Source: Lytechinus pictus (lineage: Eukaryota). From it: DNA of 64,000 nt. The notes under the pieces are model-generated. The model was not told the origin of the DNA. It saw only the letters and a program-made list of their open reading frames with translations, and ran no database searches. The position numbers and the translations under genes are program-made. Shown one piece after another: positions 4,260 to 59,261 of the stretch. The DNA is taken from positions 23,500,001-23,564,000 of the forward strand of contig NC_087251.1 of the NCBI RefSeq assembly GCF_037042905.1. The letters run 5' to 3'. The stretch's first letter is position 1. Each line of letters begins with the position of its first letter.

Positions 4260-5197
4260 TTTAACGTTTAGTTCCGCGACGTACAGATGCTGTGATGTGC
4301 ACCTGGGCCACGAACCAAAGCGTTGAAATGCACCGTTGCAACGATGTATTCCTCGAACGGTATGGAGAGATGGCCGAATTTCGACAACGCTCGTCACCGC
4401 TTACAAAATGGGAAGAAAAATCGACAACACGGGCGTTGCCTCAGCGGTGCACCGCTGAAGCCGGCGTTGCTTTACCGTTGGTTTATCGGTAGCGAGCGTT
4501 GATAGAGCGGTATTCTGCCCTTGCGGGCGTTGGCTTGGCGGGGGTTTAAAGTTGGTTTAGCGGCACACCGCTTTTGACTACTAAGCTGAATGGATCGCTG
4601 TTATAGAAGTTCTGATAGATTCTAAATGGGCTCCTGGTCCATTTCTCCCCGTATTCATAGCCAAATTCTGGTCCCGATCCGACACATCTATACCGATGCC
4701 AAGCCAAAGTTCATCACTGCAATGGATCACTGCTTCAACGCCCGACGTCGTTCCAGCAATCCCGTGTCCGCTCGTAAAACGCTTACAACCGCCCCACCAA
4801 AGTTTGTGCAACGTTTAATCACCGCCCTGGCAAAGCTGCCGAAGCAGCGATGCACGGTCCAGCGTTCAAGATTTCTGCGTTGGCCTAGCGGACCCAAGCG
4901 TCCACGAACTTGCGTCTAGCGGAGCCAAACTTTGACTGGGCGTTGTTGGAGCGGTGGTGAACTTTGCCAGAGCGCAAAATTTCCCGCTCCTCACCGCTCG
5001 CAATATTTTGTGCAGCTCAAAACTTTCGGAGCGGTAGGCGAGGGACCGTCAGCGGTGTATTCGGCGTTGCCTTTAACGGGGGCCAACTACTGTTAAACGG
5101 TGCTGAACGGTAACGAGCGGTGATGATTTTTTTTTCACCGCTCCAGGAACGCTCCAGGGACGCTCCAGCAAAGTTCTCGCGGTGTGACCGGGCCTTA
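4260..5197. mobile_element. GC-rich, one-ended Harbinger-like non-autonomous element
   Basis: Ends GGTGTGACCGGGCCTTA, the same terminus class as 13601. Shares TTTTGTGCARCTCAAAACTTT with ~14245. Left TIR not found. Confidence 0.6.
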
Positions 5198-5253: not shown

Positions 5254-6370
5254 GGTCTAACTCCATTTCGTCTACAACCATTTCGTCTATTAGCCATATA
5301 ATTCCCACTTGGTCGAATATCCAATCCATCTAATGACCAGTTGGGCTAAAACCATTTAGTGTAATTCCCAATTGGTCTAACACCACTTGGTCTAATTTGT
5401 ACTTCGGTTAATTTCCACTTCAGCTGAATTTCACTTTGTCTAATTTCCAGATAGTCTAACAATCACTTCGTCTGCATGCCAGTTGGTCTAACAGCAATTT
5501 GGGCTCACCCAATTTGGCTAATATCATATGGTCTACCTATCCACAATAGTCTAATTTTTGTTTAGTCTATTTGTCACTTTGTCTAATAACCAGTTAGGCT
5601 ACTTATTATTTAGTCTAATTGTATTATGGTCTAATGGTCTTTTGATCTAAATCACACTTGGTCTATTGTTCATTTCGTCTTTGATCTGAAATTAAGATTA
5701 TGGTCATGAATAATTTAATACACCATGCATCAATTAATGCCTGCCGCCATCAAGGCTATGGCTGGTGGTGGGCACAAAACCTCTAAACCGTCATCATTAT
5801 CATCATCACCACATGCACAATTCGAAGTATAGTGTTAAGGATAAGTTGGGGACCTTTTAATGGCCGAATGACGAGATTCATTAGCATAACATTATTGTGA
5901 AGAAAATAACGAAATTTTCGTAATGGATTGAGTGGATACGCATCTGGTAAACGTGTTTAAGCATTTCTATAATTATTATAATGCACCATTACGGACGATA
6001 CTGGACGGGAGGTAGGTACATAAAACATAGTTAGGAATTCAGTTTTGAGGGTTTCTAAAAGTTACCAAGCCGTTAGATCATGATTGTAAAATGTGGGTGT
6101 GAAGGCATAATGGGAATAGCCCAACAGGTCATTAGTTCAAGTGGAAATTAGAATAAATGATGCTTAGACAAAGTGATATTTGGACCAAATGCAATTAGAC
6201 CGAGTGCAAAATGGCAATTAATCGAAATGATAATTATACCAAGTGACAACTAGTCCAAGTGATCATTAGACCAAGTGGCATGTAGACCGAATGAGAAGTG
6301 GACTAAGTGGGTTTAACCCCAATGTTTTTAGCCCATCTGAAGATTAGTCCAAGTGGTTTTAGACCAAGAG
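5254..6370. mobile_element. GGTCTA/TAGACC minisatellite-armed foldback MITE
   Basis: (G/C)GTCTA every ~16-18 bp over 5254-5685 and TAGAC(C/G) over ~6100-6370. Same family at 6738-7098, 11722-12082, 55841-56173 and 56275-56536. Confidence 0.65.
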
Positions 6371-7147
6371 CCGGACTAAGAGTCCGTAAACCCATGGACC
6401 TATTATGGTAAACCGAATCAATTTCTGTAGTATCAGCGTTCCCGCCCCAACTCTGACATAAGGTTGGTTCCAACTTGTAAATTTATAAGCATCCCGCAAA
6501 TCTAATGTAGGCACATGCACACAAGCACGCACACACACTTACCCAATACCCTCGCACCTTATGGTGGCCCTGAAGGGACATCGCAAATAGACCAAATCGC
6601 GAATATTCACGACGAAATTGGCGACGAAATTCACGACATCGTGAATTTCGTCGCCAATTATTCACGACGAAATTTGACGTCGTGAATTTCGTCGCCAATT
6701 TCGTCGTGAATTTGTTTTGCTTGCCTGGGCGGTATGCGGGTTGAAACCAATTCGTCTGCTGCCAATTCCTCCACTCACAACAGGGTCTACATTCATTTAG
6801 TCTAATGCAATTCTGTCCATTAACTTTTCGCCTAACAACCATATGGTCCAATAACCATTTGGTCCAGTCATCACTTCGTCTATGACCATTTCGTCTCATA
6901 ACTAGTTGGTCTAATATCAATTTTATTTCCTTAATTTCGCCCAATTAACACTTAGTTCAATTAGACCAAATGGCATATGGAATAAATGGCAATTGGACCA
7001 ACTTGGTTATTAGACGAAATGGCAGTTAGACCATGTGGATACTGGACGAACTGATGGTAGACCAAATGATAGCAGACGAGTTGGCATTAGACCAATTGAA
7101 AATAAACAATTGAAACTACAGAACGATGTCCACTGCTATCCATATGC

Positions 7148-9526
7148 ATAGGCGGATCCAGTGGGGAGGGGGGCCGAGGGGCCCGCCCCCCCCCCTATTG
7201 GCGGAGCAAAAAAAAGGAAAAAAGAAAAGAAAGAAAAAAACATTAAAAAAAGAGGGAAAAGAGAGTAGAAAAAAAGAAGAGGAGGAGACGAGTGAATAAA
7301 GTAAGATGAGGGGAAGACATGGAAATAAAAAGAATCTTTCATGTCACTATATAAAATTTTCGCTCGCGCTTCGCGCTTAAATTGCATGTTAGGTGATTTT
7401 CATATCTTGTTCAATATGGAGTTTAAATATCAAGTTTGGAAGTCAATATACAAAACATATTTCATCTCGAAATTCAAACTTTCATTATTTTGCGTGATTT
7501 ACAAATTGATTTTTAAAAAGTGCTCTGTAAATATGACAGTTTTATGGTCTGAATATTAACATTTTCCGCTCCCGCTGCGCGCTCGCAAATTTCGATTTAT
7601 CAGGTACCTATTATTTTTGTGTATTCCATAAAGTTTTCAAAATATCCCTTTTCAGGTCTGATTGTCAAAACGTATCAGCTAGCGCTGCACGCTCGCTTTT
7701 TGATTGTATGTCTCAATATTGATTATACAATCCCCTTTTCATGACAATGTATTCAAAGATTTAGGCTCGCATTAATTGTTAAAAATATATTAACTGATGC
7801 ATCCTATTTTTAATTACAAAAGTGCTTGAAATGTCCAGTTTTCAGGCCATAATATCATCAAACTTCGCGCCCTCATTAGGCATTAATGAATAAGATATTA
7901 ATTTAATAATTGAATTGTCCCTTTTGTTTCATCTCGCGCTTAGCAAGAGGAATAGGAAGAAAGTCATCATTTTCATATGATGACATGTCCTACATGTCCT
8001 AAGGATGTACCGGTCCTATTACAAAAATCAAAGTAATTATAATGAAAAAATCAGCTCTGTGCGATCCATATCCACCTTACAATTTTCTTACAAAGTGCTT
8101 GAAATATAGAGCTGAAATTGACTCTTTTTTTCAGATCGGAATATCAAATAATTTAAGCTCGCGCTCCGCGCTCGCTTTGATTTTCATGATAAAAGATGTA
8201 TTTAGAATGCCTAAATTCTATGTCTAAATATGAAACACGCGCGTGCATGTTTATATTGTTTATACGCTTTCTAAATCTACAATTCGTTATAAAGGACCAA
8301 ACTTGTGGAATAATTTACCCGATACTTTAAAATTATCTGTTACATTCTCATCATTGAAACGTAGATTGAAACAAAACCAACTGTCTACTTATAGTTAATA
8401 ATTCCAACTGCCTATCTGAGGGGGGGGGTTGTTTTCGATGTGTTCGTGTCTGTTTTGTTTGTTTGTTTTTTGGCCACTATTCTATTTGTGTTTTTAATCG
8501 TACCATAATGTAGTAATCAAGGGAGTCGGCTTTGACAGGTCAATGGCCTTTCTGACTTCCTACATCCGCTACATTTTATTTTCATTTCTTTTATATTTTG
8601 ACAATTTTGTATCGCTTATACTGTGATTTAAATTATTGTACTCCTTTTTTTGTTGTATACTTGTACATATGTTTTTAAAGGATGTCAAATAAATGAATTG
8701 AATTGAATTGAATATATTCAACTTGTTCTCTATTTAAATCATTATCCAGTTTCAGATCACAATATAAACAATTTTCTGCTCGCGCTTTGTGCTCGCATCA
8801 TTAATGTAGGAATTACTCATTCTTTTCAAAATTTACAAAACATGAATAGAGTGTCCCCTATTTAGGTCTAAATCTCGATTTTTTCCGCTCGCGCTTCGCG
8901 CTCGCATCAATTGTTTAATTATATAGCTATCCTGTTCACGATTACAAAAATTAATAATAATTTTCCATTCTTTATGTAGAAATGTCAAAATTTTTCAGCT
9001 CGCGCTTCGCGCTGGCATCAATTGTTTATTATATACCTATTCTGTTTAAGTTACAAAAAGTCCATAGAATTTCCATTCTTTAGGTAAAAATGTCAAAAAA
9101 ATTCAGCTCGCGCATCGCGCTCGCATTATTTGGTTTTTAAAATATATAACGTCTTCATGACTAACTGCATGCAGTTTTTAACAGGTACTTTTTCCACCAG
9201 TTCATTTCTGCTCGCGCTTCGCGTTCGTAGTAATTATTTATTTGCATACACATCTTTTTTACGAAAACAAACATTGCCCAGAATGTTCAAATTTTAGGAA
9301 AAAATACATAAGATTTCCAAAAAAAAATTAGCTCGCGCTTCGCGCTCATATTATATAAATAAGGATTATGATATATGTTTATGTTGATTTATAAGAATAA
9401 AGCTAAGAAGACTACCCCTTCACAGAAACCAAAAATCATCTTCGAGCGGCCGATCGGGGAAAATATGGCTGAAAAATAATTCCGGCCCCCCCCCCCCCCT
9501 ATTGGCGAAGGCTGGATCCGCCCCTG
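7148..9526. mobile_element. hAT-like MITE with an internal degenerate ~110-bp tandem repeat
   Basis: TIRs CATAGGCGGATCCAG / CTGGATCCGCCCCTG; subterminal CCCCCCTATTGGCG at both ends; recurrent GCTCGCGCTTCGCGCTCGC motif. No TSD retained. Confidence 0.7.
8263..8713 (+). mobile_element. Short 3' fragment of a CR1/L2-group LINE nested in the MITE
   Basis: Translates TLSKSTIRYKGPNLWNNLPDTLKLSVTFSSLKRRLKQNQLSTYS* (typical ORF2 C-terminus), followed by a UTR hairpin near 8520-8560 and AATAAA(TGAAT)n. Confidence 0.8.
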
Positions 9527-9689
9527 GAACACCTAACAGGCAATGCAAGCGAAAATTTTATATAGTGACATGAAAGATTCTTTTTATTTCCATATCTTCC
9601 CCTCATCTTATTTTTTTCACTCGTCTTCCTCCTCTTCTTTTTTTTCTCCTCTCTTTTCCCTCCTTTTTTTTATTTCTTTCTTCCCTTTT

Positions 9690-10751
9690 AACAAACTTAA
9701 CAAATTACATCATTATGGAGTGCGTGGGAAGGCCTTGGAGTGGTTCAGGAGCTACCTCTTGAATAGGAAGCAATATGTCTTTTTAAACGGTTGCAATTCT
9801 CAAATGAAAAAAATTAATTGTGGAGTTCCCCAGGGTAGTATTTTAGGCCCGATTTTGTTTATAGTTTATATTAATGATTTTTGTAGATCATCAGATATTC
9901 TTTCTTTCATTCTCTTTGCGGACGACTCTAACTTATTTTTTTCACATAAAAATCCTCTTCACCTTGCTAATATAATCAACTCTGAACTAGAAAATGTCAC
10001 CGAATGGATAAGAGCAAATAAATTGTTACTAAATCTTCAAAAAACAAAATATATGTTGTTTAGCAACTCTATAAATACACTTCCTGTTGATATTATTTTA
10101 GATGGAACTCCCTTGGAAAATGTATCCCATATTAAGTTTATTGGAATAACAGTCGATAATAAGCTCTCATGGAAATTTCACATAGATAACATATGTAAAA
10201 CTATTTCACGCAACATTGGTATAATTAACAAGCTTAAATTTTGTTTACCATTATCGTCCCTGCTTACACTATATTCATCCCTTATATTGCCTTATTTAAA
10301 TTATGGAATTTTAGCGTGGGGTAATACACAACAAACACTCTTAGACAAATTACTCCTATTACAAAAGAAGTCTCTACGTATTATATGTCACACGACATAT
10401 TTGTCTCATACTGACCCATTATTTTTTTAACATAAAATATTGAAAATTAAAGACTTATATTTGTTTAATCTCGGTCAGTTTATGTATAACTATAACAACA
10501 ACAACCTCCCAAATGTATTTAATTCAATGTTTCCAAAAAATCAATCCATTCACAACTATCCAACAAGGCGATTGGGTGAATTTCATTTACCACTTTTAAG
10601 AACTTTGCGGGCTCAGAACACATTTATATATGATGGACTGAAGTTATGGAACTCACTTCATAATGATATAACAAATGCAAAATCTTTGAACTCTTTTAAG
10701 ACTAAATTCAAATTATCTCTATTAAAACCTTATAATATACTCCCAAAATAA
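9690..10751 (+). pseudogene. LINE ORF2 reverse transcriptase C-terminal half
   Basis: Motifs YGVRGKALEWFRSYL, GVPQGSILGPILF, YIND, FADD, LNLQKTK, YLNYGILAWG and KLWNSL. ORFs 9543-10430 and 10440-10751 are in the same frame, separated by a single TAA at 10428-10430. Confidence 0.93.
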
Positions 10752-11600
10752 GTTTAATTCATCATCTCTGTCAAGTCATCATTATTACTTTAAAGACTAC
10801 AATTAAAACATAAAATAATTATTATCCTTTTTTATTAAAAAAATAAAAATCTGACACAAGTCCTTCTCAGATGTGCTCATTATTGAACCTCATACATTAT
10901 TGTGTCTATCCTCTCTATTTTCTCCTCTCCTGTCCGCTTATCCGCCTTCCTACCGGTTATTTGTTCACGGCATCAATCCCATTCTTCGTGCATTATATTC
11001 TTTCCAGGTTATTTTATATATATTTTTTTCCTTTTATACACATCATTGAATCCAGTTTGCTTGAGTCCACGACGGCATGTGTTCTATCTACGTACAGCAG
11101 CACCCATCCATCTTCTCAGGGCATTCTCCCCTTTTTTCTTCTCTTTTTCTGGGGGGGGGGTGGGGTGGGGAAGGGTGGATATTTTTAGGACGGGTTGTTT
11201 TGTCCTTTATCAAACTATATATTTTTGATAACTTTGTATTTATTTTGTGAGCATTTCCCTCTCATGTATTTATTTTTTTCTCATTTGATTATCTGTATTT
11301 ATACTTTGTTATTTTGTTATTTGTTGTGTTATCTATTTTTTGAGGGGCCCACATTGTACAAGCATTGCTTTTTAGTGGGTCCCCCCATTTCCATCTTAAT
11401 TTAATTTCTATTGAAAAATAGTATACATATTTAAAAACTACAATGTGTTGCCCAAATTGTCTAAGTGTTTTTTCACAACATATGTATCATTAATTTTTTT
11501 TGCAACGGATACAAATATTTATGTTTATATATGGTATACAATTTGTTTTTGTTTGATGGAAGTGAAATAAATAAATTTGAATTGAATTTGAATTTGAATT
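9690..11600 (+). mobile_element. 5'-truncated CR1/L2-group LINE (Crack/Daphne-like) inserted in the right arm of the foldback
   Basis: RT-encoding frame, 3' UTR with a stem-loop at 11344-11384, AATAAA and a (TTGAAT)n tail. The flanks rejoin into sequence that is contiguous in the left arm. Confidence 0.9.
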
Positions 11601-13600
11601 TCCTTTTTTTTTTGCTCCGCCAATAGGGGGGGCGGGCCCCTCGGCCCCCCTCCCCCCTGGATCCGCCTATGCATATGGATAGCAGTGGACATCGTTCTGT
11701 CGTTTCAATGGTTTATTTTCAATTGGTCTAATGCCAACTCGTCTGCTATCATTTTGGTCTACCATCAGTTCGTCCACTATCCACATAGTCTAACTGCCAT
11801 TTCGTCTAATAACCAAGTTGGTCCAATTGCCATTTATTCCATATGCCATTTGGTCTAATTGAACTAAGTGTTAATTGGGCGAAATTAAGGAAATAAAATT
11901 GATATTAGACCAACTAGTTATGAGACGAAATGGTCATAGACGAAGTGATGACTGGACCAAATGGTTATTGGACCATATGGTTGTTAGGCGAAAAGTTAAT
12001 GGACAGAATTGCATTAGACTAAATGAATGTAGACCCTGTTGTGAGTGGAGGAATTAGCAGCAGACGAATTGGTTTCAACCCGCATACCGCCCAGGCAAGC
12101 AAAACAAATTCACGTCGAAATTGGCGACGAAATTCACGACGTCGTTAATTTCGTCGTGAATAATTCGCGACGAAATTGGCGACGAAATTTTACGATGTCG
12201 TGGATTTCGTCGCCAATTTCGTCGTGAATATTCGCGATTTGGTCTATTTGCGATGTCCCTTCAGGGCCACCATAGCACCTTCCCTTCCTCGCTTTTGAAC
12301 ACAATTTGCAAGATTGCAGAAGGGCATTAACGCCGTGCCGGCCGAATCGGAGAGCGAACTGTCATGTATGCTGTCATACGCCTCCTAACTCTCTCTGCCA
12401 CGGCACCACGTCCACACACCCTCACAAACATTTACACTTTGTTAGTTTCGGTCCTTGCTACCAAAGCATGAAAAGCTTCAATAGAGTAGCAAAGTTATCA
12501 AATTGAGCCATTTTGGGGAAATTTGTTCAATATGAATTGTGTCATCGGAAAAAAATACATGTTAACTGTATGTTGTCTTACATAAAGAAAAAGAATAAAT
12601 TCATTATCTTTATTCATTTGGTTGTTCGTAACTTCAGAGATTGCAGGTTGCAGATGAGAAATTATCCAGGCCCGGTTTTTAGACCAAAATTTTGATAGGG
12701 CTTCTGGGGGCAACCAATAAAAGGAGTACTTCTGAAGCTACGACTGTCTCATAGCACATTTTTTGCACCTATATATATATATTCTTTCTTTGTGGTCGAT
12801 TTTTTTTTTGGGCGGTGGCTTGGTCGTTTTTGAGTGGGTTTCAGATCCCAAAGCCCAAAGCTCCCTCTAGAACAGCGCCTACTTGCTTGCTCATTTCCGT
12901 CGATTGCAAAGTAAAAAATAGCAACTTCCGTAATAGCATAAAGCATTATTTCTATATATATTTACAAAGATACGAGGTCGCAAACATCTTATTGATCCAA
13001 TGTTGCTTTCCAGAGTGGGGGAGTGCGTTAGTTTGTCTACGGTGTAGATTATACCGTGTACCTTCATGATTATACATAATTACCTTCACTCATCATCCGG
13101 GAGACTGTCGGCAAATCTCAGCCAAATACAATATTAAGTATTTCACAAAACTACGTAATATTATCATTCCTTTTTTAAGAACCCGATAATGGCAATTAAT
13201 AATAGCCTTCGAAGTATCAGTTACGCATTCATTATGCTTAGACATGAATGAATAGACAGACAGATAAATTAATATATAATATTAATAGATAAACAAGCTG
13301 AACACCTCTGGCAGTCTCGACTGTATTACACATTTACACGACTCAATATAGTAGCAGTTCCGACTTTGAAAACAACTTAGATGAATAATTCTAAAAAGAA
13401 AAACGCCATTCATATGATAATAAAATGCTTCACGACCTTCGACCTTTGTGATGTGACCTGCATACTCGTGAAAAATTAGCATTGATACTTTAGTACTCTT
13501 CTGTCAAAGTTTCACGCTATAGAGCAATTTAATTCCAAAGTAATGATGACATTTTGTGTAGAGCGAGACAACAAATGAATAGATGAAAAAATAGTGACTT

Positions 13601-14429
13601 AAGGCCCGGTCCCACTGCAATTACGGATGCGAAGAGGATGTCAAACGGAAAAAAAATAGTGCCGACCTTTGGAAAACGCTATGCATCCGTTGTGTACTCA
13701 TTGCATATGTGGTTCATACGCTCTATCCATCGAGCATCCGCGCAAAAAAGTTTTAAAGGTCCCACCGTGGCTAATGGCCGCAGAACGTATTCAAACAGAT
13801 ACAGCGTACGAGCAAAATGTCGGGGCTGGCTCTATCCGTTTTCATCTGCTTAAGAAATGGACAAAGTTGCGAAAACATAACGGAAAATAACAGACGTTGG
13901 TAGTATAGCGGGGATGTTAAAAGGATGTTCATCGGAAGCCCAGCGATGAAAGCGGATGGAAGTGGATGACAGCTCCGAAGGGGTTACTGGGGGCGATACG
14001 AAATGCATACGCTTGCATCCATTCTATTCCCCCGCTACTAACGATGGCTAACGATGTATATTCGTTCCATGTACCTTATCTTTCTTCCCTCTTTCCGTTG
14101 TTCAGCTGTGGTGGATATGAGCTGCGAGGATGCAGAGAAGATACAGCGGACGTTTAACGGATGATAACGGACATGTGACGTTTCTTGCTCGTTTATGTTG
14201 CGGATTTAAATGGCACACTGCGGAAAGTTCAACCGTTCTAAAAGTTTTGTGCAACTCAAAACTTTTTGTGCGGATGAAATCACAGTGGACGGATGTTCGA
14301 TAGCGTATGTAACACGTATGTAGCGAGTACACAATACAACGGATGCATAGCGTTTCCCAACGGATGGCAAGACTTTTTTACGATTTACATCCGCTTTGCA
14401 TCCGTAAGCTCAGTGAGACCATGACTTTA
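13601..14429. mobile_element. PIF/Harbinger-like MITE
   Basis: TTAAGGCCCGGTCCCACTG..TTACGGATGC at the left is matched by GCATCCGTAA..CAGTGAGACC at the right; inner IR AAACGCTATGCATCCGTTG. Confidence 0.7.
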
Positions 14430-14865
14430 GCTGCACAAAACTTACAGAACGGAAGAACTTTCCGCCGGTACGATGTAAACCCGTAACATATACGAGCAAT
14501 AAAGTTCAATGCCAGTTAACATCCGTTTAACGTCCGCTGTATCCTCTCTGCATCCTCTGGGCATCCTCGCAACTCAGATCCACTGAAGCTGAACAACGGA
14601 AAGAGGGAGGAAAGATAAGGTACACGGAATGTCTATACATCGTTAGTAACACCGAAATAGAAATGCATCTCGTAAATGAAGTATTCAAAAACCCCGGTAA
14701 CCATTTCGGAGCTGTCATCCACTTCCATCCGTTTTCATCCACAAGGTTTCCAATGTACAGCCTTTAACATCCACGCTACATACTAACCAGGTGGAGCCTC
14801 CCGTGAAATTTTGCTCGTCCGCTGTGTCCTTTATGAATACGTTTTGTATCCGTCGGCCTTACGAA
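14430..14865 (-). mobile_element. Inverted internal fragment of the same Harbinger-like family
   Basis: Reverse complement of ~13790-14255 (e.g. TTCGGAGCTGTCATCCACTTCCATCCG versus CGGATGGAAGTGGATGACAGCTCCGAA). Confidence 0.7.
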
Positions 14866-15578: not shown

Positions 15579-16325
15579 TACAATATGGTTGCGGATAGAA
15601 TCTCTTCCGATAGAAGCCATAAATTCATTTTAATTGCTCTAAGCTGGGTCAAAATGCTCACGTTCTTTTTTCAATGTATATTCTATGTACCTTCACTATA
15701 TTTAGCGTTTGATAAAACGACGTAATACACCATAATTTGTGTCTGCATGATATCTATTTTTTTTTAAGTACCCGGTAAAGACATTTTACCCGATAAAGCC
15801 TTGAAAGTATCAATAAAGTACTCGTTGTGAATTTACAGTGTGAAATATTCATGTCAACGGCTGCATGAGGGAATCTTTGACACGACTCCAGTGGCGTAGC
15901 CAGTAGTTTTCAAAAGGGGTATGAAGCGCAAACACCAATCAATGACTTTTTGTATTTTTCCAGTAAAACTTTTTCTTTGGACCTACTAGATTACATCAAA
16001 TCTAGCATAAAAACAAAACATAATTTTGCTTGACAAGTTGAATTTAAAAACGAAATTGATATTTGAAAAGAGAAAAAAAGCAAAGCGTGAAATTACATGA
16101 GGTCCTAAAGTAGAAATCGGATAAAAATAAAGTAAATTATGTTACAGAGTAAGGTATAAAACAACAGTTCGCAATAGAGTTGCTTTTAAAGTATTATTTT
16201 TTGACGTCACATATGAACAGTTCCCTCCCCTCACGTTTCCAAATATTAATAGCATCAAATACCAAAATTACAAAAAACTGAAGATGATTTTAACTTTACA
16301 TTCAATAAAATTTCATACAGGTTTT

Positions 16326-17803
16326 TTTCTCACCTGCATAGCAGAGTGAAACTATAGGCGCCGCTTTTCCGACGGCGGCGTCAACACCAAATCTTAACCG
16401 AAGGTTAAGTTTTTGAAATGACAGCATAACTTAGAAAGTATATGGACCAAGTCAATGAAACTTGGCCATAAGGTTAATCAAGTATTACTAAACATCATGC
16501 CTGAGTTTCAGGTCACATGACCAAGGTCAAATGTCATTTAGGGTCAATGAACTTAGACCATGTTGGGGAAATCAACATCAAAATCTTAACCTAAGGTTAA
16601 GTTTTTGAAATGTCATCATAACTCAGAAAATATATGGACCTATAGTTCATGAAACTCGGACATAAGGTTAATCAAGTATTACTGAACATCCTGTTTGAGT
16701 TTCACATCACATGATCAAGGTCAAAGGTCATTTAGGGTCAATGAACTTTGGCCAAATCGGGGGTATCTGTTGAATTACCATCATAACTTTGAAATTTTAT
16801 TGGTCTAGTTCATAAAACTTGGACATAAGAGTAATCATGTATCACTGAACATCCTGTGCGCATGTCAGGCCACATGACCAAGGTCAAAGGTCAATGAACT
16901 TTGGTCATAATGGGGGGTATTTGTTGAATTACCATCATAACTTCGAAAGTTTATTGATCTGATTCATGAAACTTGGACATAAGAGTAATCAAGTATCACT
17001 GAACATCCTGTGCGAGTCTCAGGTCACATGATCAAGGTCAATGAACTTTGGCCAAGTTGGGGGTATTTGTTGAATTACCATCATAACTTTAAAAGTTTTT
17101 TTATCTAGTTCATAAAGCTTGGACATATGAGTAATCAATTATCATTGAACATCCTGTGTGAATTTCAGGTCACATGACCAACATCAAAGGTCAATGAACT
17201 TTGGCCATGTGGGGGGGGGGGGTATCTGTTGAATTACCATCATAACTTTGAAAGTTTATGGATCTGATTCATGAAACTTGGACATAAGAGTAATCAGGTG
17301 TCTTTGAAGATCCCGTCCGAGTTTCAGGTCACATGACCAAGGTCAAATGTCATTTAAGGTTAATGAACTTTGGCCATGTTGGGGGTATTTGTTGAATTAC
17401 CATCATAACTCTGTAAGTATATTGGTCTAGTTCATAAAACTTAGACATAAGAGTCATCAGGTATCACTGAACATCTCATGCGAGTTTCAGGTCACATGAC
17501 CAAAGTCAAAGGTCGTTTAAGGTCATTGAACTTTGGCCATTTTAGTGGAAATTATTAGATTGCTGTCATAACTTTCAAAGTTTATAGATATAGTGTATAA
17601 AATGTGGATATAGGGGTAATCTAGTATCACTGACATGTGTTAGGTCACATGATGAAGGTCAAATGTCAATGAACGTAGTATTGTATCATTATATGAATGG
17701 TGTTTTTAGTGAATAATTATTTTATAGTAGTTTTCAAAGTCAGCACTGCTGCTATATTGAATCGCGTGATACAGGTGAGACCGCCAGAGGCATTCCACTT
17801 GTT
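16326..17803 (+). mobile_element. Helentron/Helitron-like non-autonomous element (HINE/pearl-type) carrying a satellite array
   Basis: 5' subterminal IR TCTCACCTGCA with a nearby partial IR and GGC microsatellite; about 8 tandem units of ~145-195 bp; 3' ACAGGTGAGA then CCACTTGT; T-rich flanks with no TSD. Confidence 0.75.
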
Positions 17804-46159: not shown

Positions 46160-46671
46160 TATCATCATCATCATCATCACCAGTAACATCATCATCATCA
46201 TCACTACCATCATCATCATCATCACTACCATCACCATCATCATCATCATCAGTGGCGGACCGTGACCCGGAGGAGACAAAGCATTGGAGGGGCACAGCAT
46301 TGTTCACAAACAATACAGTGCCCCTCCAATGCTTTGTCTCCTCCGGGTCACGGTCCGCCACTGATCTTCATCATCACATCATCATCATCATCATCATCAT
46401 CACTACCATTATCATCATCATCATCATCATCACATCATCATCATCACTACCATCATCATCATCATCACCACCACCATCACCACCACCACCACCATCACCA
46501 TCACCATCATCATCATCATCATCATCACCACCACCACCACCATCATCATCATCACTACCATCATCATCATCGCCATCATCACCACCACCAACACCAACAC
46601 CACCACCATCATCATCATCATCACCACTACCATCATCATCATCATAATCATCATCATCATCATCATCATCA

Positions 46672-49713: not shown

Positions 49714-51466
49714 GTAATGAAGGAGATTGGGCACCGGTGAAATTCAAGTTTGAACCTACATCATGGTAGACAAGAAGGCAATCGTGCTGTTTCATGCCTG
49801 TGTGCGAGGAGATTAGCAACCGAGAGAAGAAATTTGTAGTTTTGTTCTTTTTTTTTCAATGTAAACACAACATATAATTTTATTAATACATTAAGTCAAT
49901 ACATCAAAAGAATACCTCCTGAAGCATGTCATAATCATCTGGATAAGAAAATAACTGTTTAGACATGAATGGAATGCTGCATTATTCAATATTATATACG
50001 CATATAGGGCCTACATATTGTTTTATTTTTCTTTGTGGTAAATCTCTTTTTATCTTATTTTATTTATTTATTCATTTTTTTTTTTGGGGGGGGGGCTTGA
50101 GCCCCACCCCCTGAACTGCGCCTGAGTACAATGGGCAATGGGCCCTATTGCTGCCATACTAAACTTTTCACGTGTCAATTGAACAAGGGTTTTGTAATAT
50201 CCTGTGTTATATATTTACTTGCTAACAAATACCTCTTTGTTTATAATCGTATACGAAAGCTAGTTATGTCTGGAAATTCCATTCTTGAAACGCCGATTTT
50301 CTTAGCAGTCAGGTAAAAAAACTCGGTATGTATACTCGTGAGTTTGTACGGTTATAAGACTCCTCAGTATCGTACATATTCTCCTACATCATTATAACAT
50401 TTTAACAATTAATCTCTTACAGGGTGTTATGGTGTTTTGTATCCTCTCTCCCTCTTTCCCTACCGATTGGATCTTCTGTGTACAAACTACGTCTACACAG
50501 TGCAGCTGATACAATTTATTCAATGGAAGTGGATCACAGAGGCGTAATGAGCCAAAAATACTGAGGGGGGGGGCGAGACATTGGGCGTATTGGACAAAAT
50601 TTGCGAGCGAGTGAAGCGATCGAGTGAGCAAAAATTTAACAAAAATCTAATTTTGTGATAGATTTTGACATAATATTCAGAAAACTATGTCATTGTTCAC
50701 CCTTCTCTCTTTCCTTTTCCTCTCATACCTTTTTTATATTTAAAAAATTAGGATCCATGGCCCCAAGGCCCCCCCCCCCAACCCTCGCTGCAGTCAGTGC
50801 AGTGCATTTGGATCAAAATTCTACATTCGACATGTGGATAGTGACCATTTGCTATGGTAAAAGTTCAATCCTTTCTCTGCTATTTCATGTATTCAATTTT
50901 CTGTTTCGTTCTAAAAGAAAGGAAACATTGGAAATTTAATTCTGCCTCTCGAAATAGTACAGCCAATATAGAATATGAGGTGATGGTTAATTTCATGCAT
51001 ATCTGTTTGCAAAGAAAACACACGAAATGTGACTTTATGATTACTGTTTGATAATTGCTTCTATTTTATAGTGCGGTTTTGAATACGTGCCGAGCACCTG
51101 TACTGTTTGCAAAAGTGAAGGACGCATCCATTATGTATATGGGGTCCCAATGAATTCGTTGATAATTTTATATAAAATATCAAACATTCCGAATGACACA
51201 AAAAACAATTTGATATTGTATAAAGGTGATGAATGAAAGATTATGGTTCCAGAAATATGTTGATTTATTTTTTTTAATTTAAATTGAAAATATTCACATA
51301 TTGACAGTAATTAATAATACCCCTATATAATGAAACCGCCTATAAGGGTTAACTCGAGGTCGTATCCTGGGCATGGTGTACACAAACTTGTTTTGTGGAA
51401 CAGGTGATTGATTACAAATTTCAAATAGACTTTCAGTTTTAACTCGTTGTGACGTATTTATTCACG

Positions 51467-51943
51467 ATGGCAGATTCAGAAGATCAACCTGTATTGTTAA
51501 CAGAAGGAAGCATTGCCCAAGAGGATTCTGAGAAAGATTCTGGGGACCAAGATGTGAAATCCGCGAATGAAACTGAGCCGCCGAACGATGGTGACGGAAG
51601 CGGGGACATCGTCGATCAGCCCGCCGAAACTCCTCCGACGATAAGCGAGGATGCACGTCCTTCAACAGCACCAGAAGCCGGTCTTTCAGCTAGCACTCTT
51701 CAAGAAGTTGAACGTTCTGTATTGAAAGCTGTATCAGAAACACCGTTGCCAGATAGTTTAAATGATGGAGAAGAAGGAGGTGACGATTTTAATGAAGCAA
51801 TACAGCAAGACACCCTGAGTGATAGATTAGATCAACTTCCTTGTGATTTAGGAGATGATATTGAATACATTGCCCCACCAGAAGATCCCTACATGAGAGC
51901 AGTAAACTACATGGAGAAACATAAAGTTATGCAGATGTTTCAG
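51467..51943 (+). CDS. TEX55-like: Coding exon 1 of a TEX55/C3orf30-like protein (acidic low-complexity N-terminus, start of a dimerisation/docking domain)
   Basis: ATG at 51467 (ACGATGG context) opens 159 codons, MADSEDQ...EDPYMRAVNYMEKHKVMQMFQ, ending at CAG|GTAGTT (phase 0 donor). The YMEKHxxxQxFQ motif matches my recollection of the TEX55 C-terminal domain. Confidence 0.8.
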
Positions 51944-52625
51944 GTAGTTAAAAGCGGGGGTTTTATTAATTAGTAAATTAACACAAAGTGGATCTAAAGT
52001 TGAAGATGATGAAGGAAAGAAATGTCTTTGTTACGCCGCAGTTGTAATGTAGGAAAAGACTAAAGACGTTACATGTAAGTGATGCCAAGCAGAATGACAA
52101 TGGTGGTTTCTCATAAATATTCATGACGTATTCATGAATGCGTATGTGATTGTCATAGTTGTCATTCATTTCAAATTTAACTTGGCTGCCAAAATGCTAC
52201 TACTAAAAGTACTAGCAATACAATTTGTAAGAAATGTGCAAGTAGGATGATATGTGTTCCATATAGTGTAGAAATAGGCATAGTCATAACAAGCAATTTT
52301 CCAACCCGCTTGATTTTGACAGCTTCTTTTCCAATGAGAGGTATATGTAGCCAACCTTACCCTCAGTGGGGTGGGGGTGAACAGGAGAACCTATAGATGC
52401 CACAATCTGGTCTGTTTATTCATGTATGGAAATATGTTAATAGGAAAACTAAACAATGGAATCCATATTCATATTCATTTTTTTTATAGATACACTGTAC
52501 AAATCCTTGATGATATTTGAATGATTAAGTCAAATTATCTTGTAATTGTTTTCAGAAGTATAAAGGCTTGGTTTGTGCTCATATTTCCTCAATTTCAATG
52601 CTTTGAATTGTTTTCTATCTTACAG

Positions 52626-55745: not shown

Positions 55746-55840
55746 ATTCAGAACTTATGGTGAAAAGATTTTGGGTATTGCTTTCAAGGTTTAGAATGAG
55801 TATGTGTGAATATCAAGTTGTGCATGGGTTTTTTTTAATT

Positions 55841-56173
55841 GGTGTAATGCCAATTCGTCCAATTACCAATTTGTCTATTATCATTTGGTCTACCATCAGT
55901 TCATCCATTATCTACAAGGTCTAATTGCCAATTCATCCATTCATCATTTCATCAAATAACCAGTTGGTCCAATACTCATTTAGTCCATATACCATTTGGT
56001 CTAATCGGACTAAGTGTTAATGGGCGAAATGAATGAAAATAAAATATTATACCAACTGGTTATGAGACGAAGTGATGATTGGACCAATTGGTTGTTAGAC
56101 AAAATGTTGGACGGAATGGCATTAGACTAAATGAAGGTAGACCGTGTGGTGAGTAGACAAATTGGCAATTTAC
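55841..56173. mobile_element. GGTCTA-family MITE, CpG-decayed copy
   Basis: Colinear with 11722-12075; several CG replaced by CA/TG. Confidence 0.8.
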
Positions 56174-56636
56174 CTTTGCATTGTTCTACCAGCAAATCAT
56201 CTAACTTGGCATAATACATATTTGTTATAATTACCATTCGGTACAACTATTATTCTACTATTATTCTAATACTCACTTGGTCTAAGGTTAGTCTAAAGCC
56301 CAGCTGGACTAACTCTCCACTTATTTTGTCTACGTTTTATTTTGCTCTTCATCAAATAAAATTGGATTCATACACAGTTAATCTAATGTGGTTTAAGATC
56401 AAGTGGCTATTAGATGAAATGGTTATAGCATAACTGGAGATTAGACCAAATGGTGAAAGGGCTAAATGGCAATTAGACCATTGAGACTAAATGGAAAATA
56501 GACAAAGTGGATGGAGACTCTAAATTGCAGTTTACCTTGTATAATAGGCAAGTATAAATAACCTTTGGTGAAGGCGATAGTATCCACATATTAACTGCTC
56601 ATGAGGATGACAATATGGTGTAAATTATCATTCCTA

Positions 56637-57976: not shown

Positions 57977-58947
57977 ACAAGTGGAATGCCTCTGGCCGTC
58001 TCACCTGCATCACGCGATTCAATATAGCAGCAGTGCTGATTTTGAAAACTACTATAACTCGCACAAGATGTTCAGTGATACTTGGTTACTCTTATTTCCA
58101 CGTTTTATGAACTAGACCAATACACTTATAGAGATATGATGGCAATTCAACTAATACCCCCAACGTGGCCAAAGTTCTTTGACCTTACATGACCTTTGAC
58201 CTTGATCATGTGACCTGAAACTCGCACAGGATGTTCAGTGATACTTGATTACTATTATGTCCAAGTTTTATGAACTAGACCAACACACTTTCAAATTTAT
58301 GGCTGTAATTCAACAAATACCCCAATTTGGCCAAAGTTCATTGACCCTAAATGACCTTTGACCTTGATCATGTGACCTAAAACTTGCACAGGATGTTCAG
58401 TAATACTTGATTACTATTATGTCCAAGTTTCATGAATCAGATCCATAAACTTTCAAAGTTATGATGGTAATTCAACAGATACCCCCAATTCGGCCAAAGT
58501 TCATTGACCCTAAATGACCTTTGACCTTGGTCATGTGATGTGAAACTCAAGCAGGATGTTCAGTGATACTTGATTAACCTTATGTATAAGTTTCATGAAC
58601 TAGGTCCATATATTTTCTAAGTTATGATGACATTTCAAAAACTTAACCTTAGGTTAAGATTTTGATGTTGATTCCCCCAACATGGTCTAAGTTCATTGAC
58701 CCTAAATGACCTTTGACCTTGGTCATGTGACATGAAACTCAGGCAGGATGTTCAGTAATACTTGATTAACCTTATGGTCAAGTTTCATGAACTAGGTCCA
58801 TCTACTTTCTAAGTTATGCTGTCATTTCAAAAACTTAACCTCAGGTTAAGATTTGGTGTTGACGCCGCCGTCGCCGCCGCCGCCGCCGCCGCCGTCGCCG
58901 TCGGAAAAGCGGCGCCTATAGTCTCACTCTGCTATGCAGGTGAGACA
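57977..58947 (-). mobile_element. Second copy of the satellite-carrying Helentron-like element, opposite orientation
   Basis: Reverse complement of both termini of 16326-17803; about 4-5 units; longer (GCC)n tract. Confidence 0.8.
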
Positions 58948-59261
58948 AAAAGGGAGAAAAATTAACCAGCATAACACTGAAAATTTTGCCAAAATCAAAT
59001 ACAAAATATCCATATGATAGACTTAAAAAAAAAGTTTTGCTTGCTTTCACAAAATAGGTTTTCAAATTAGAGAGTCAATGGTGAAATACTATTTCTTTAT
59101 ATTTTATTACATAAAATATAAAATGTTCAATTTTTCGTCCAATAATGTAACATTCAACATGGTTAAATTCCTTATGGAAATTATAAAATTATTACAATTT
59201 ATTTTGATTTTGTAAAAATTTTCTTTGACAAGTCTATTAAAAGTGATATCTATCAATCAAT

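Follow-up and report, generated by a model that had tools for sequence, protein, structure and literature searches.

A foldback transposon with IS3EU-type ends and arms of older repeats in the sea urchin Lytechinus pictus

The stretch analysed here, 64,000 nucleotides of Lytechinus pictus (assembly GCF_037042905.1, contig NC_087251.1, positions 23,500,001 to 23,564,000 of the forward strand; hereafter the window, by which all positions are counted), is animal DNA rich in repeats and holds a foldback element at 6560-12274. The element opens with TATGG at 6560, closes with CCATA at 12274 and is flanked on both sides by the hexamer GCACCT. Its left arm consists, in this order, of a terminal segment of 45 bp, a block of CGACGAAATT repeats, a miniature inverted-repeat transposable element (MITE) of 16-bp units, a 38-bp spacer and a further element, here called M, and the right arm repeats this order in mirror image. 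The element is real, non-autonomous and equipped with foldback arms of older repeats, and it has been reshaped by long interspersed nuclear elements (LINEs) and, probably, by the end of one of its passengers.

Architecture of the element

The right arm mirrors positions 6560-7399 and is divided into 9527-9689 and 11599-12274. Inverted arms of ~660 bp run without interruption (6560-7220 versus 11599-12274), and they measure ~840 bp only if 9527-9689, on the far side of a LINE of 1909 bp, is counted in. A preliminary description of this locus had given arms of ~830 bp; this agrees with the length obtained once the LINE, which it omitted, is removed, but not with the contiguous arms. Missing from that description altogether were the two LINE insertions and the junction at the right end of M.

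The CGACGAAATT block ending in TTGCTTGCCTGGG, the 16-bp-unit (GGTCTA) MITE, the spacer and the GGCGGATCC left end are present in both arms in mirror order, as had been proposed, with the amendment that the left GGCGGATCC element is a complete M (7147-9526). The GGTCTA MITE, described earlier as complete, does occur in both arms, but it does not begin at GGTCTA and its ends are degenerate, so that "complete" is an approximation; no target duplication was seen around the copy at 6739-7108. The nested MITE and M likewise bear out the idea that the arms are built from other transposons, which for the CGACGAAATT block is one of two possibilities: it may be a fragment, with a single end, of a different MITE, or it may consist of subterminal repeats that belong to the element itself. 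Another MITE-like element of 16-bp units lies at 5254-6405 and ends ~150 bp left of the foldback, and two nested or adjacent pieces of the 16-bp-unit MITE family lie at 55833-56512, one with a possible degenerate 8-bp duplication.

Every cargo junction is identical between the arms in their alignment. The arms thus descend from one ancestral copy in which the cargo was already nested, and the passengers have been duplicated and inverted, as the preliminary description had it; separate insertion of MITEs into each arm is ruled out by the same identity. The outer arms differ by 11 substitutions in 650 aligned bases (1.7%) and the inner piece by 6 in 138 (4.3%), or 7 in 139 if an edge column is counted. 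The outer arms may conceivably have been homogenised again later, and a firm claim of gene conversion was dropped (p 0.03-0.10).

Table 1. Components of the foldback element and its flanks, in window coordinates
Feature	Position	Strand	Evidence or remark
Left target-site duplication GCACCT	6554..6559		Sequence match
Left terminal segment, IS3EU-type end	6560..6604	+	First 16 bases also form the end of a MITE family from fish-like contigs
12-bp-unit CGACGAAATT block, itself a hairpin, ends TTGCTTGCCTGGG	6605..6729	+	Fold of 6560-6730, z -11.1
16-bp-unit (GGTCTA) MITE, degenerate ends	~6739..7108	+	73% identical to copy at 55833-56167; high-copy family
Spacer, 38 bp, common to both arms	7109..7146	+	Arm alignment
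Complete high-copy non-coding element M (CATAGGCGGATCCAG..CTGGATCCGCCCCTG)	7147..9526	+	Internal 108-bp repeats
LINE 3' fragment inside M, 455 bp, (TTGAA)n tail, TATATT on both sides	8258..8712	+	Depth drop
Inner piece of right arm: inverted M copy up to ~7399, begins directly at M's right terminus	9527..9689	-	Arm alignment
5'-truncated LINE, 1909 bp, in right arm's T-rich tract	9690..11598	+	RVT_1, E 4.4e-17; (TTGAA/TTTGAA)n tail
Inverted left end of M	11599..11671	-	Arm alignment
Mirror of spacer, 16-bp-unit MITE and linker	11672..12089	-	5 substitutions/417 versus left arm
Mirror of CGACGAAATT block, longer by one 13-bp unit	12090..12229	-	Arm alignment
Right terminal segment, ends CCATA	12230..12274	-	Same sequence as left terminal segment
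Right target-site duplication GCACCT	12275..12280		Sequence match

The long LINE inserted after the arms had been duplicated. It retains the C-terminal half of a reverse transcriptase, with an in-frame stop at 10428-10430, and a long 3' untranslated region. Its reading frame was considered as the foldback's own gene and ruled out, as it lies in one arm only, is 5'-truncated and carries a LINE tail. Part of the 3' untranslated region (11333-11539) is far commoner in the sequencing runs introduced below than the remaining LINE, and this abundant stretch is perhaps shared with short interspersed nuclear elements or other LINE families. In agreement with the preliminary description, no transposase was found: 24 of 41 stop-to-stop frames of at least 50 amino acids gave no Pfam match at the cut-off (the reverse-transcriptase frame was scanned separately), and a scan of all six frames of the window for IS3EU motifs returned nothing. 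The element appears to be without coding function and would be a passenger of transposases supplied in trans.

Termini and target-site duplication

The ends of the element are transposon ends that carry the signature of the IS3EU/GingerRoot superfamily. Specifically, the GCACCT flanks agree at 6/6 positions, and among duplication lengths from 2 to 10 only six gives a full match (next best 4/10), which upholds both the termini and the duplication first proposed; for randomly chosen pairs of places in the window, the rate of agreement in a 6-mer is 0.00051. Even with up to 3 mismatches allowed, a search of the window for the 14-base end sequence finds just the element's own two ends. The opening 71 bases are the same in both arms. 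An alternative delimitation with ATGG..CCAT ends and a 7-bp duplication was ruled out by mismatching flanks.

Published descriptions match these features: complete IS3EU families have TA..TA termini and, as a rule, 6-bp target-site duplications (TSDs; PMC10045372), IS3EU elements of rust fungi have TAYGG..CCRTA ends and terminal inverted repeats (TIRs) over 30 bp (PMC12730594), and GingerRoot has TSDs of 6 bp and TIRs of 100-150 bp (PMC6839031). A second sea urchin has annotated IS3EU elements (PMC13745590). All three structural IS3EU features open to testing are thereby found here, namely TA..TA (TAYGG..CCRTA) termini, a 6-bp TSD and TIRs longer than 30 bp. Membership in the IS3EU/GingerRoot superfamily is therefore probable from the end signature; the label is drawn from that signature because a transposase motif was found neither in the window nor in the fish-like loci described next.

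The preliminary assignment to IS3EU gains further support from a family of another animal, unrelated but with identical terminal 16 bases. When metagenome contigs were scanned for this opening word of the element, at least 117 loci were found, a sample, and at 23 of those listed, from two assembly series, a repeat family begins exactly at the 16-base word. These 23 loci were chosen by contig prefix and downstream sequence; their upstream flanks are unrelated, one duplicate pair excepted, and flanking reading frames suggest a fish-like host. Five of them (L046, L050, L052, L092 and L098) have both ends, 224-432 bp apart, and six-base flanks that match at 6/6, 5/6, 5/6, 5/6 and 0/6. A match of 5/6 or better was thus seen in 4/5 two-ended listed copies versus 0/20 mismatched pairings, so the outcome that would have spoken against the original proposal, a terminus never accompanied by 6-bp duplications, is not what this family displays. 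Among the matches listed, a second end with up to 2 mismatches is absent from all 92 control loci. L107 and L135, which are without family sequence, were scored with the family in the second-end search and left out of the duplication scoring. The remaining 18 listed family loci are one-ended, 12 of them with fewer than 500 bases downstream and 6 with more than 1 kb and no close second end.

The 6-bp flank matches therefore identify the 16-base word as a conserved transposon terminus that, in another animal, is tied to 6-bp duplications. Beyond these 16 bases the fish-like family and the urchin element gave no BLAST match at E 1e-4, and they share similar short subterminal words only (ATC(A/G)CAA-like). 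The identity between the urchin element and the fish-like MITE family spans phyla, and such conservation suggests a constrained binding site for a transposase. In addition to termini, duplications and subterminal words, the TATGGTGGCCCTGAAG-ended fish-like family resembles the urchin element in its inverted arms; it differs in its small size of 224-432 bp, arms of 49-167 bp and lack of nested cargo.

Element M and the inner junction

The most informative feature for the mechanism is the inner junction at the right end of M. The mirror opens at 9527, directly after M's last base and without filler, and for a breakpoint distributed uniformly over M, the post hoc p of lying within 2 bases of M's end is about 0.002. 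Contigs of four runs were aligned to 7400-13600; of the 7757 rows of loose ends and 2189 joints in this alignment, 24 and 15 were considered. Behind 9526, 153, 166, 196 and 29 contig ends are loose in the four runs, and since so many contigs end there loose with unrelated flanks (agreement 0.34-0.40), 9526 is M's true family end.

Elements of the hAT type combine an 8-bp TSD with short CA..TG TIRs; M is bordered by CA..TG TIRs of 15 bp, and its flanks show no 8-bp duplication (0/8). A related short element at 46250-46363, a palindrome of 114 bp with the ends CAGTGGCGG..CCGCCACTG that sits in a long (ATC)n microsatellite, has an 8-bp duplication at 7/8 positions, which suggests that M is probably hAT-like. 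The simplest reading of the inner junction would be a transfer of M's right end into the M copy that lies inverted in the other arm, whereby the centre was deleted; the missing duplication of M fits, because M's right flank would have been replaced. Precedent comes from maize, where alternative transposition of Ac yields deletions and duplications with end points at Ac termini, and where sister-chromatid transposition deletes flanks (PMC3744419).

Comparison with known systems

The element resembles the IS3EU and GingerRoot elements in its TA..TA ends, 6-bp TSD and TIRs over 30 bp, and its size lies within the 3.9-12.9 kb of GingerRoot; in contrast to GingerRoot arms of 100-150 bp, its arms measure ~840 bp, consist of other repeats and are accompanied by no transposase (PMC10045372, PMC12730594, PMC6839031). 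Long inverted arms that are modular or internally repetitive and come without a transposase are characteristic of foldbacks such as Galileo, Tetris and FB, and this is what the element displays. The likeness to the non-autonomous Galileo 2T/2RT elements of Drosophila mojavensis, with long TIRs of 18-1250 bp and internal sequence copied to the other arm, concerns arm growth; Galileo is part of the P superfamily, has a 7-bp TSD and recruits its own internal sequence, whereas here foreign MITEs have been recruited and the inner boundary is the terminus of another transposon (PMC3573991). A 7-bp duplication is absent here (2/7), and the element works like Galileo without being a member. Tetris of Drosophila virilis is likewise a gene-less foldback with modular arms and short repeats, but it differs in its 8-10-bp TSDs, arms of its own 220-bp repeat and other termini (PMC4079207).

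Duplications of the 8-10 bp typical of Tetris or Mutator-type foldbacks are not found at the urchin element (2/8, 2/9 and 4/10), and the AG termini that Polinton/Maverick elements combine with a 6-bp TSD do not agree with its TA..TA ends. The TU foldbacks of sea urchins are also gene-less and have modular arms with short repeats, with TSD length and termini unlike those of the element. CCCAG-ended MITEs may be of the CMC/EnSpm type.

Alternative transposition of Ac/Ds and hybrid element insertion of P provide a parallel for the junction, since they place the end point of a rearrangement exactly at a transposon terminus and produce flanking deletions and inverted duplications; here the process is deduced from one junction inside another transposon, and the reciprocal product with its 8-bp duplication is not visible (PMC3744419). 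Mutator-like elements with extra TIRs offer a looser parallel (PMC3310237).

Proposed history and alternatives

The available data are compatible with a model, to which we assign a probability of about 0.5, in which a long-armed IS3EU-type element with cargo in both arms inserted, lost its centre via M's end and then received LINEs. Specifically, a non-autonomous DNA transposon, presumably of the IS3EU/GingerRoot type and mobilised by an IS3EU transposase acting in trans, would have inserted and duplicated GCACCT; its ends and the duplication are seen directly. Repair between its inverted ends had probably turned one arm into a copy of the other, a route suggested for Galileo, in which TIRs are extended by copying (PMC3573991), and the cargo-bearing arms were most likely terminal repeats already at insertion. 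Both arms would then have carried M, and because they did, the element would once have been longer. To judge from the exact junction, M's own, probably hAT-type, transposase may subsequently have joined M's right end, by alternative transposition, to a site within the inverted M that lies ~250 bp from the left end of the latter, thereby deleting the centre. LINEs would then have entered the right arm and M.

Several observations weigh against this history. In the contig alignment, no listed piece spans the element, crosses 12274 or shows an empty site, and a second composite copy was not seen in the terminus scans of metagenome, viral or prokaryote sequences, whereas the role of vehicle for passenger MITEs, put forward in the preliminary description, presupposes several cargo-bearing copies. 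No IS3EU transposase is tied to the terminus in the motif scan of the window or of the 23 listed fish-like loci. In that family, no second end with up to 2 mismatches appears at the 6 listed loci whose downstream sequence exceeds 1 kb, one of the five two-ended copies is without a duplication (0/6) and three stand at 5/6. The superfamily of M is drawn from one related copy, located in a CAT microsatellite, and a 2-base microhomology (CA) at the inner junction is possible. Finally, the difference between inner and outer divergence (4.3% versus 1.7%) is not robust, with a Fisher p of 0.10, or 0.03 by other counting.

The best runs share at most 0.29 of sampled words, and 8 differences are listed in ~105 bases of unique flank, so the runs seem to come from a diverged relative rather than from the source animal. 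Summed contig depth in the bin with the element's last 114 bases was 14480, 34872, 18251 and 150 versus 10, 18, 0 and 0 in the next bin. The deep bin combines the terminus with CGACGAAATT repeats, and the rows listed include no loose ends at 12274. The exact 21-base terminus was found in 0 metagenome contigs, the 20-base terminus in 1 bacterial contig among prokaryote genomes and the 22-base CCCAGGCAAGC end in 0 viral contigs. The 16-base terminus gave 21 loci in viral contigs, which were all judged to be chance, as no more than 16 of the 45 bases that follow agreed.

That no second copy was found would be of no consequence if the arms had been copied in place, a course we consider possible, though on the doubtful side. 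An IS3EU-type element with short TIRs would have collected MITEs on one side, and a break at M's right end would have been repaired by invasion of the left end by the right, with 840 bp copied inward, so that no move of the composite took place while both arms held cargo. Such copying leaves the 6-bp duplication intact and fits the TIR1-F1-F1-TIR2 model of Galileo (PMC3573991). Yet M's terminus, intact to the last base and without filler, would better suit strand transfer into an existing inverted copy than end-joining, and the cargo, with its lost ends and missing duplications, looks far older than the 1.7% split of the arms, while GCACCT is perfect. A hybrid of two copies, in which M's right end of one copy entered the M of another, inverted copy and the two inward-facing left ends then moved here as a new unit, would account for the exact junction, for the absent M duplication and for an inner piece that has diverged slightly more; because this requires a multicopy parent with this left arm, of which none was seen, and two separate events, it is unlikely.

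Highly improbable, in our estimate, is an arrangement in which the shared junction does not stem from arm copying because a double-M unit (7147-11671, with two left ends of M) entered the centre of a spacer-less palindrome of 1.2 kb. The six bases outside both left ends of M do read CATATG in direct orientation, with a chance of ~1/64 in a mirror repeat, but since the reverse complement of CATATG is CATATG again, its mere presence makes the two sides agree, and the 8-bp duplication to be expected of M-like elements from one related copy is lacking (2/8). An assembly artefact, through a mirror read or collapsed repeats, is hardly credible: although no read of the source animal spanning the structure was found, 17 substitutions and several indels separate the two arms, a LINE lies in one arm only, and the mirror symmetry breaks off on both sides exactly where a transposon ends, with a direct 6-bp duplication outside it. 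The insertion of a long-armed element with cargo in both arms, followed by collapse of its centre, is the favoured history.

Surroundings

GC-rich palindromic elements flank the foldback at 4315-5195 and 13604-14785, the right one with an internal inverted repeat of ~376 bp at 75%. Farther away, inverted arrays of a 159-194-bp repeat lie at 16322-17668 and 58056-58951, ~41 kb apart and up to 95% identical at their outer ends; they could be two copies of a family or the arms of a very large element. An exon of a Tex55-like gene at 51443-51973 (+) has a weak Pfam Tex55 match; its identity to a protein of Lytechinus pictus is 97%.

Significance

The element represents a known kind of foldback growth and rearrangement and not a new type of element. 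IS3EU is little studied (PMC11934779), and no description of IS3EU foldbacks or of an element like this one was found in the literature searched, on foldbacks, insertions nested in both TIRs and IS3EU in Lytechinus, which mostly excluded subscription papers; Repbase may already hold the family. We put forward, tentatively and with more doubt than belief, that IS3EU-type foldbacks form a family in this genome, with terminal repeats that were assembled from captured MITEs and take these along when they move. One transposase would carry other families in mirror pairs, a second one, of hAT type, would collapse the centre and make shorter palindromic elements, and the present copy would be a dated snapshot of this two-transposase cycle.

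As a single copy, the element would amount to ordinary nesting plus one rearrangement. The LINE in one arm provides a natural test of arm-to-arm conversion. If cargo-bearing copies do form a family, the arm growth known from Galileo would extend to another superfamily, MITEs would be duplicated without a transposase of their own, and long inverted repeats able to seed inversions would arise.

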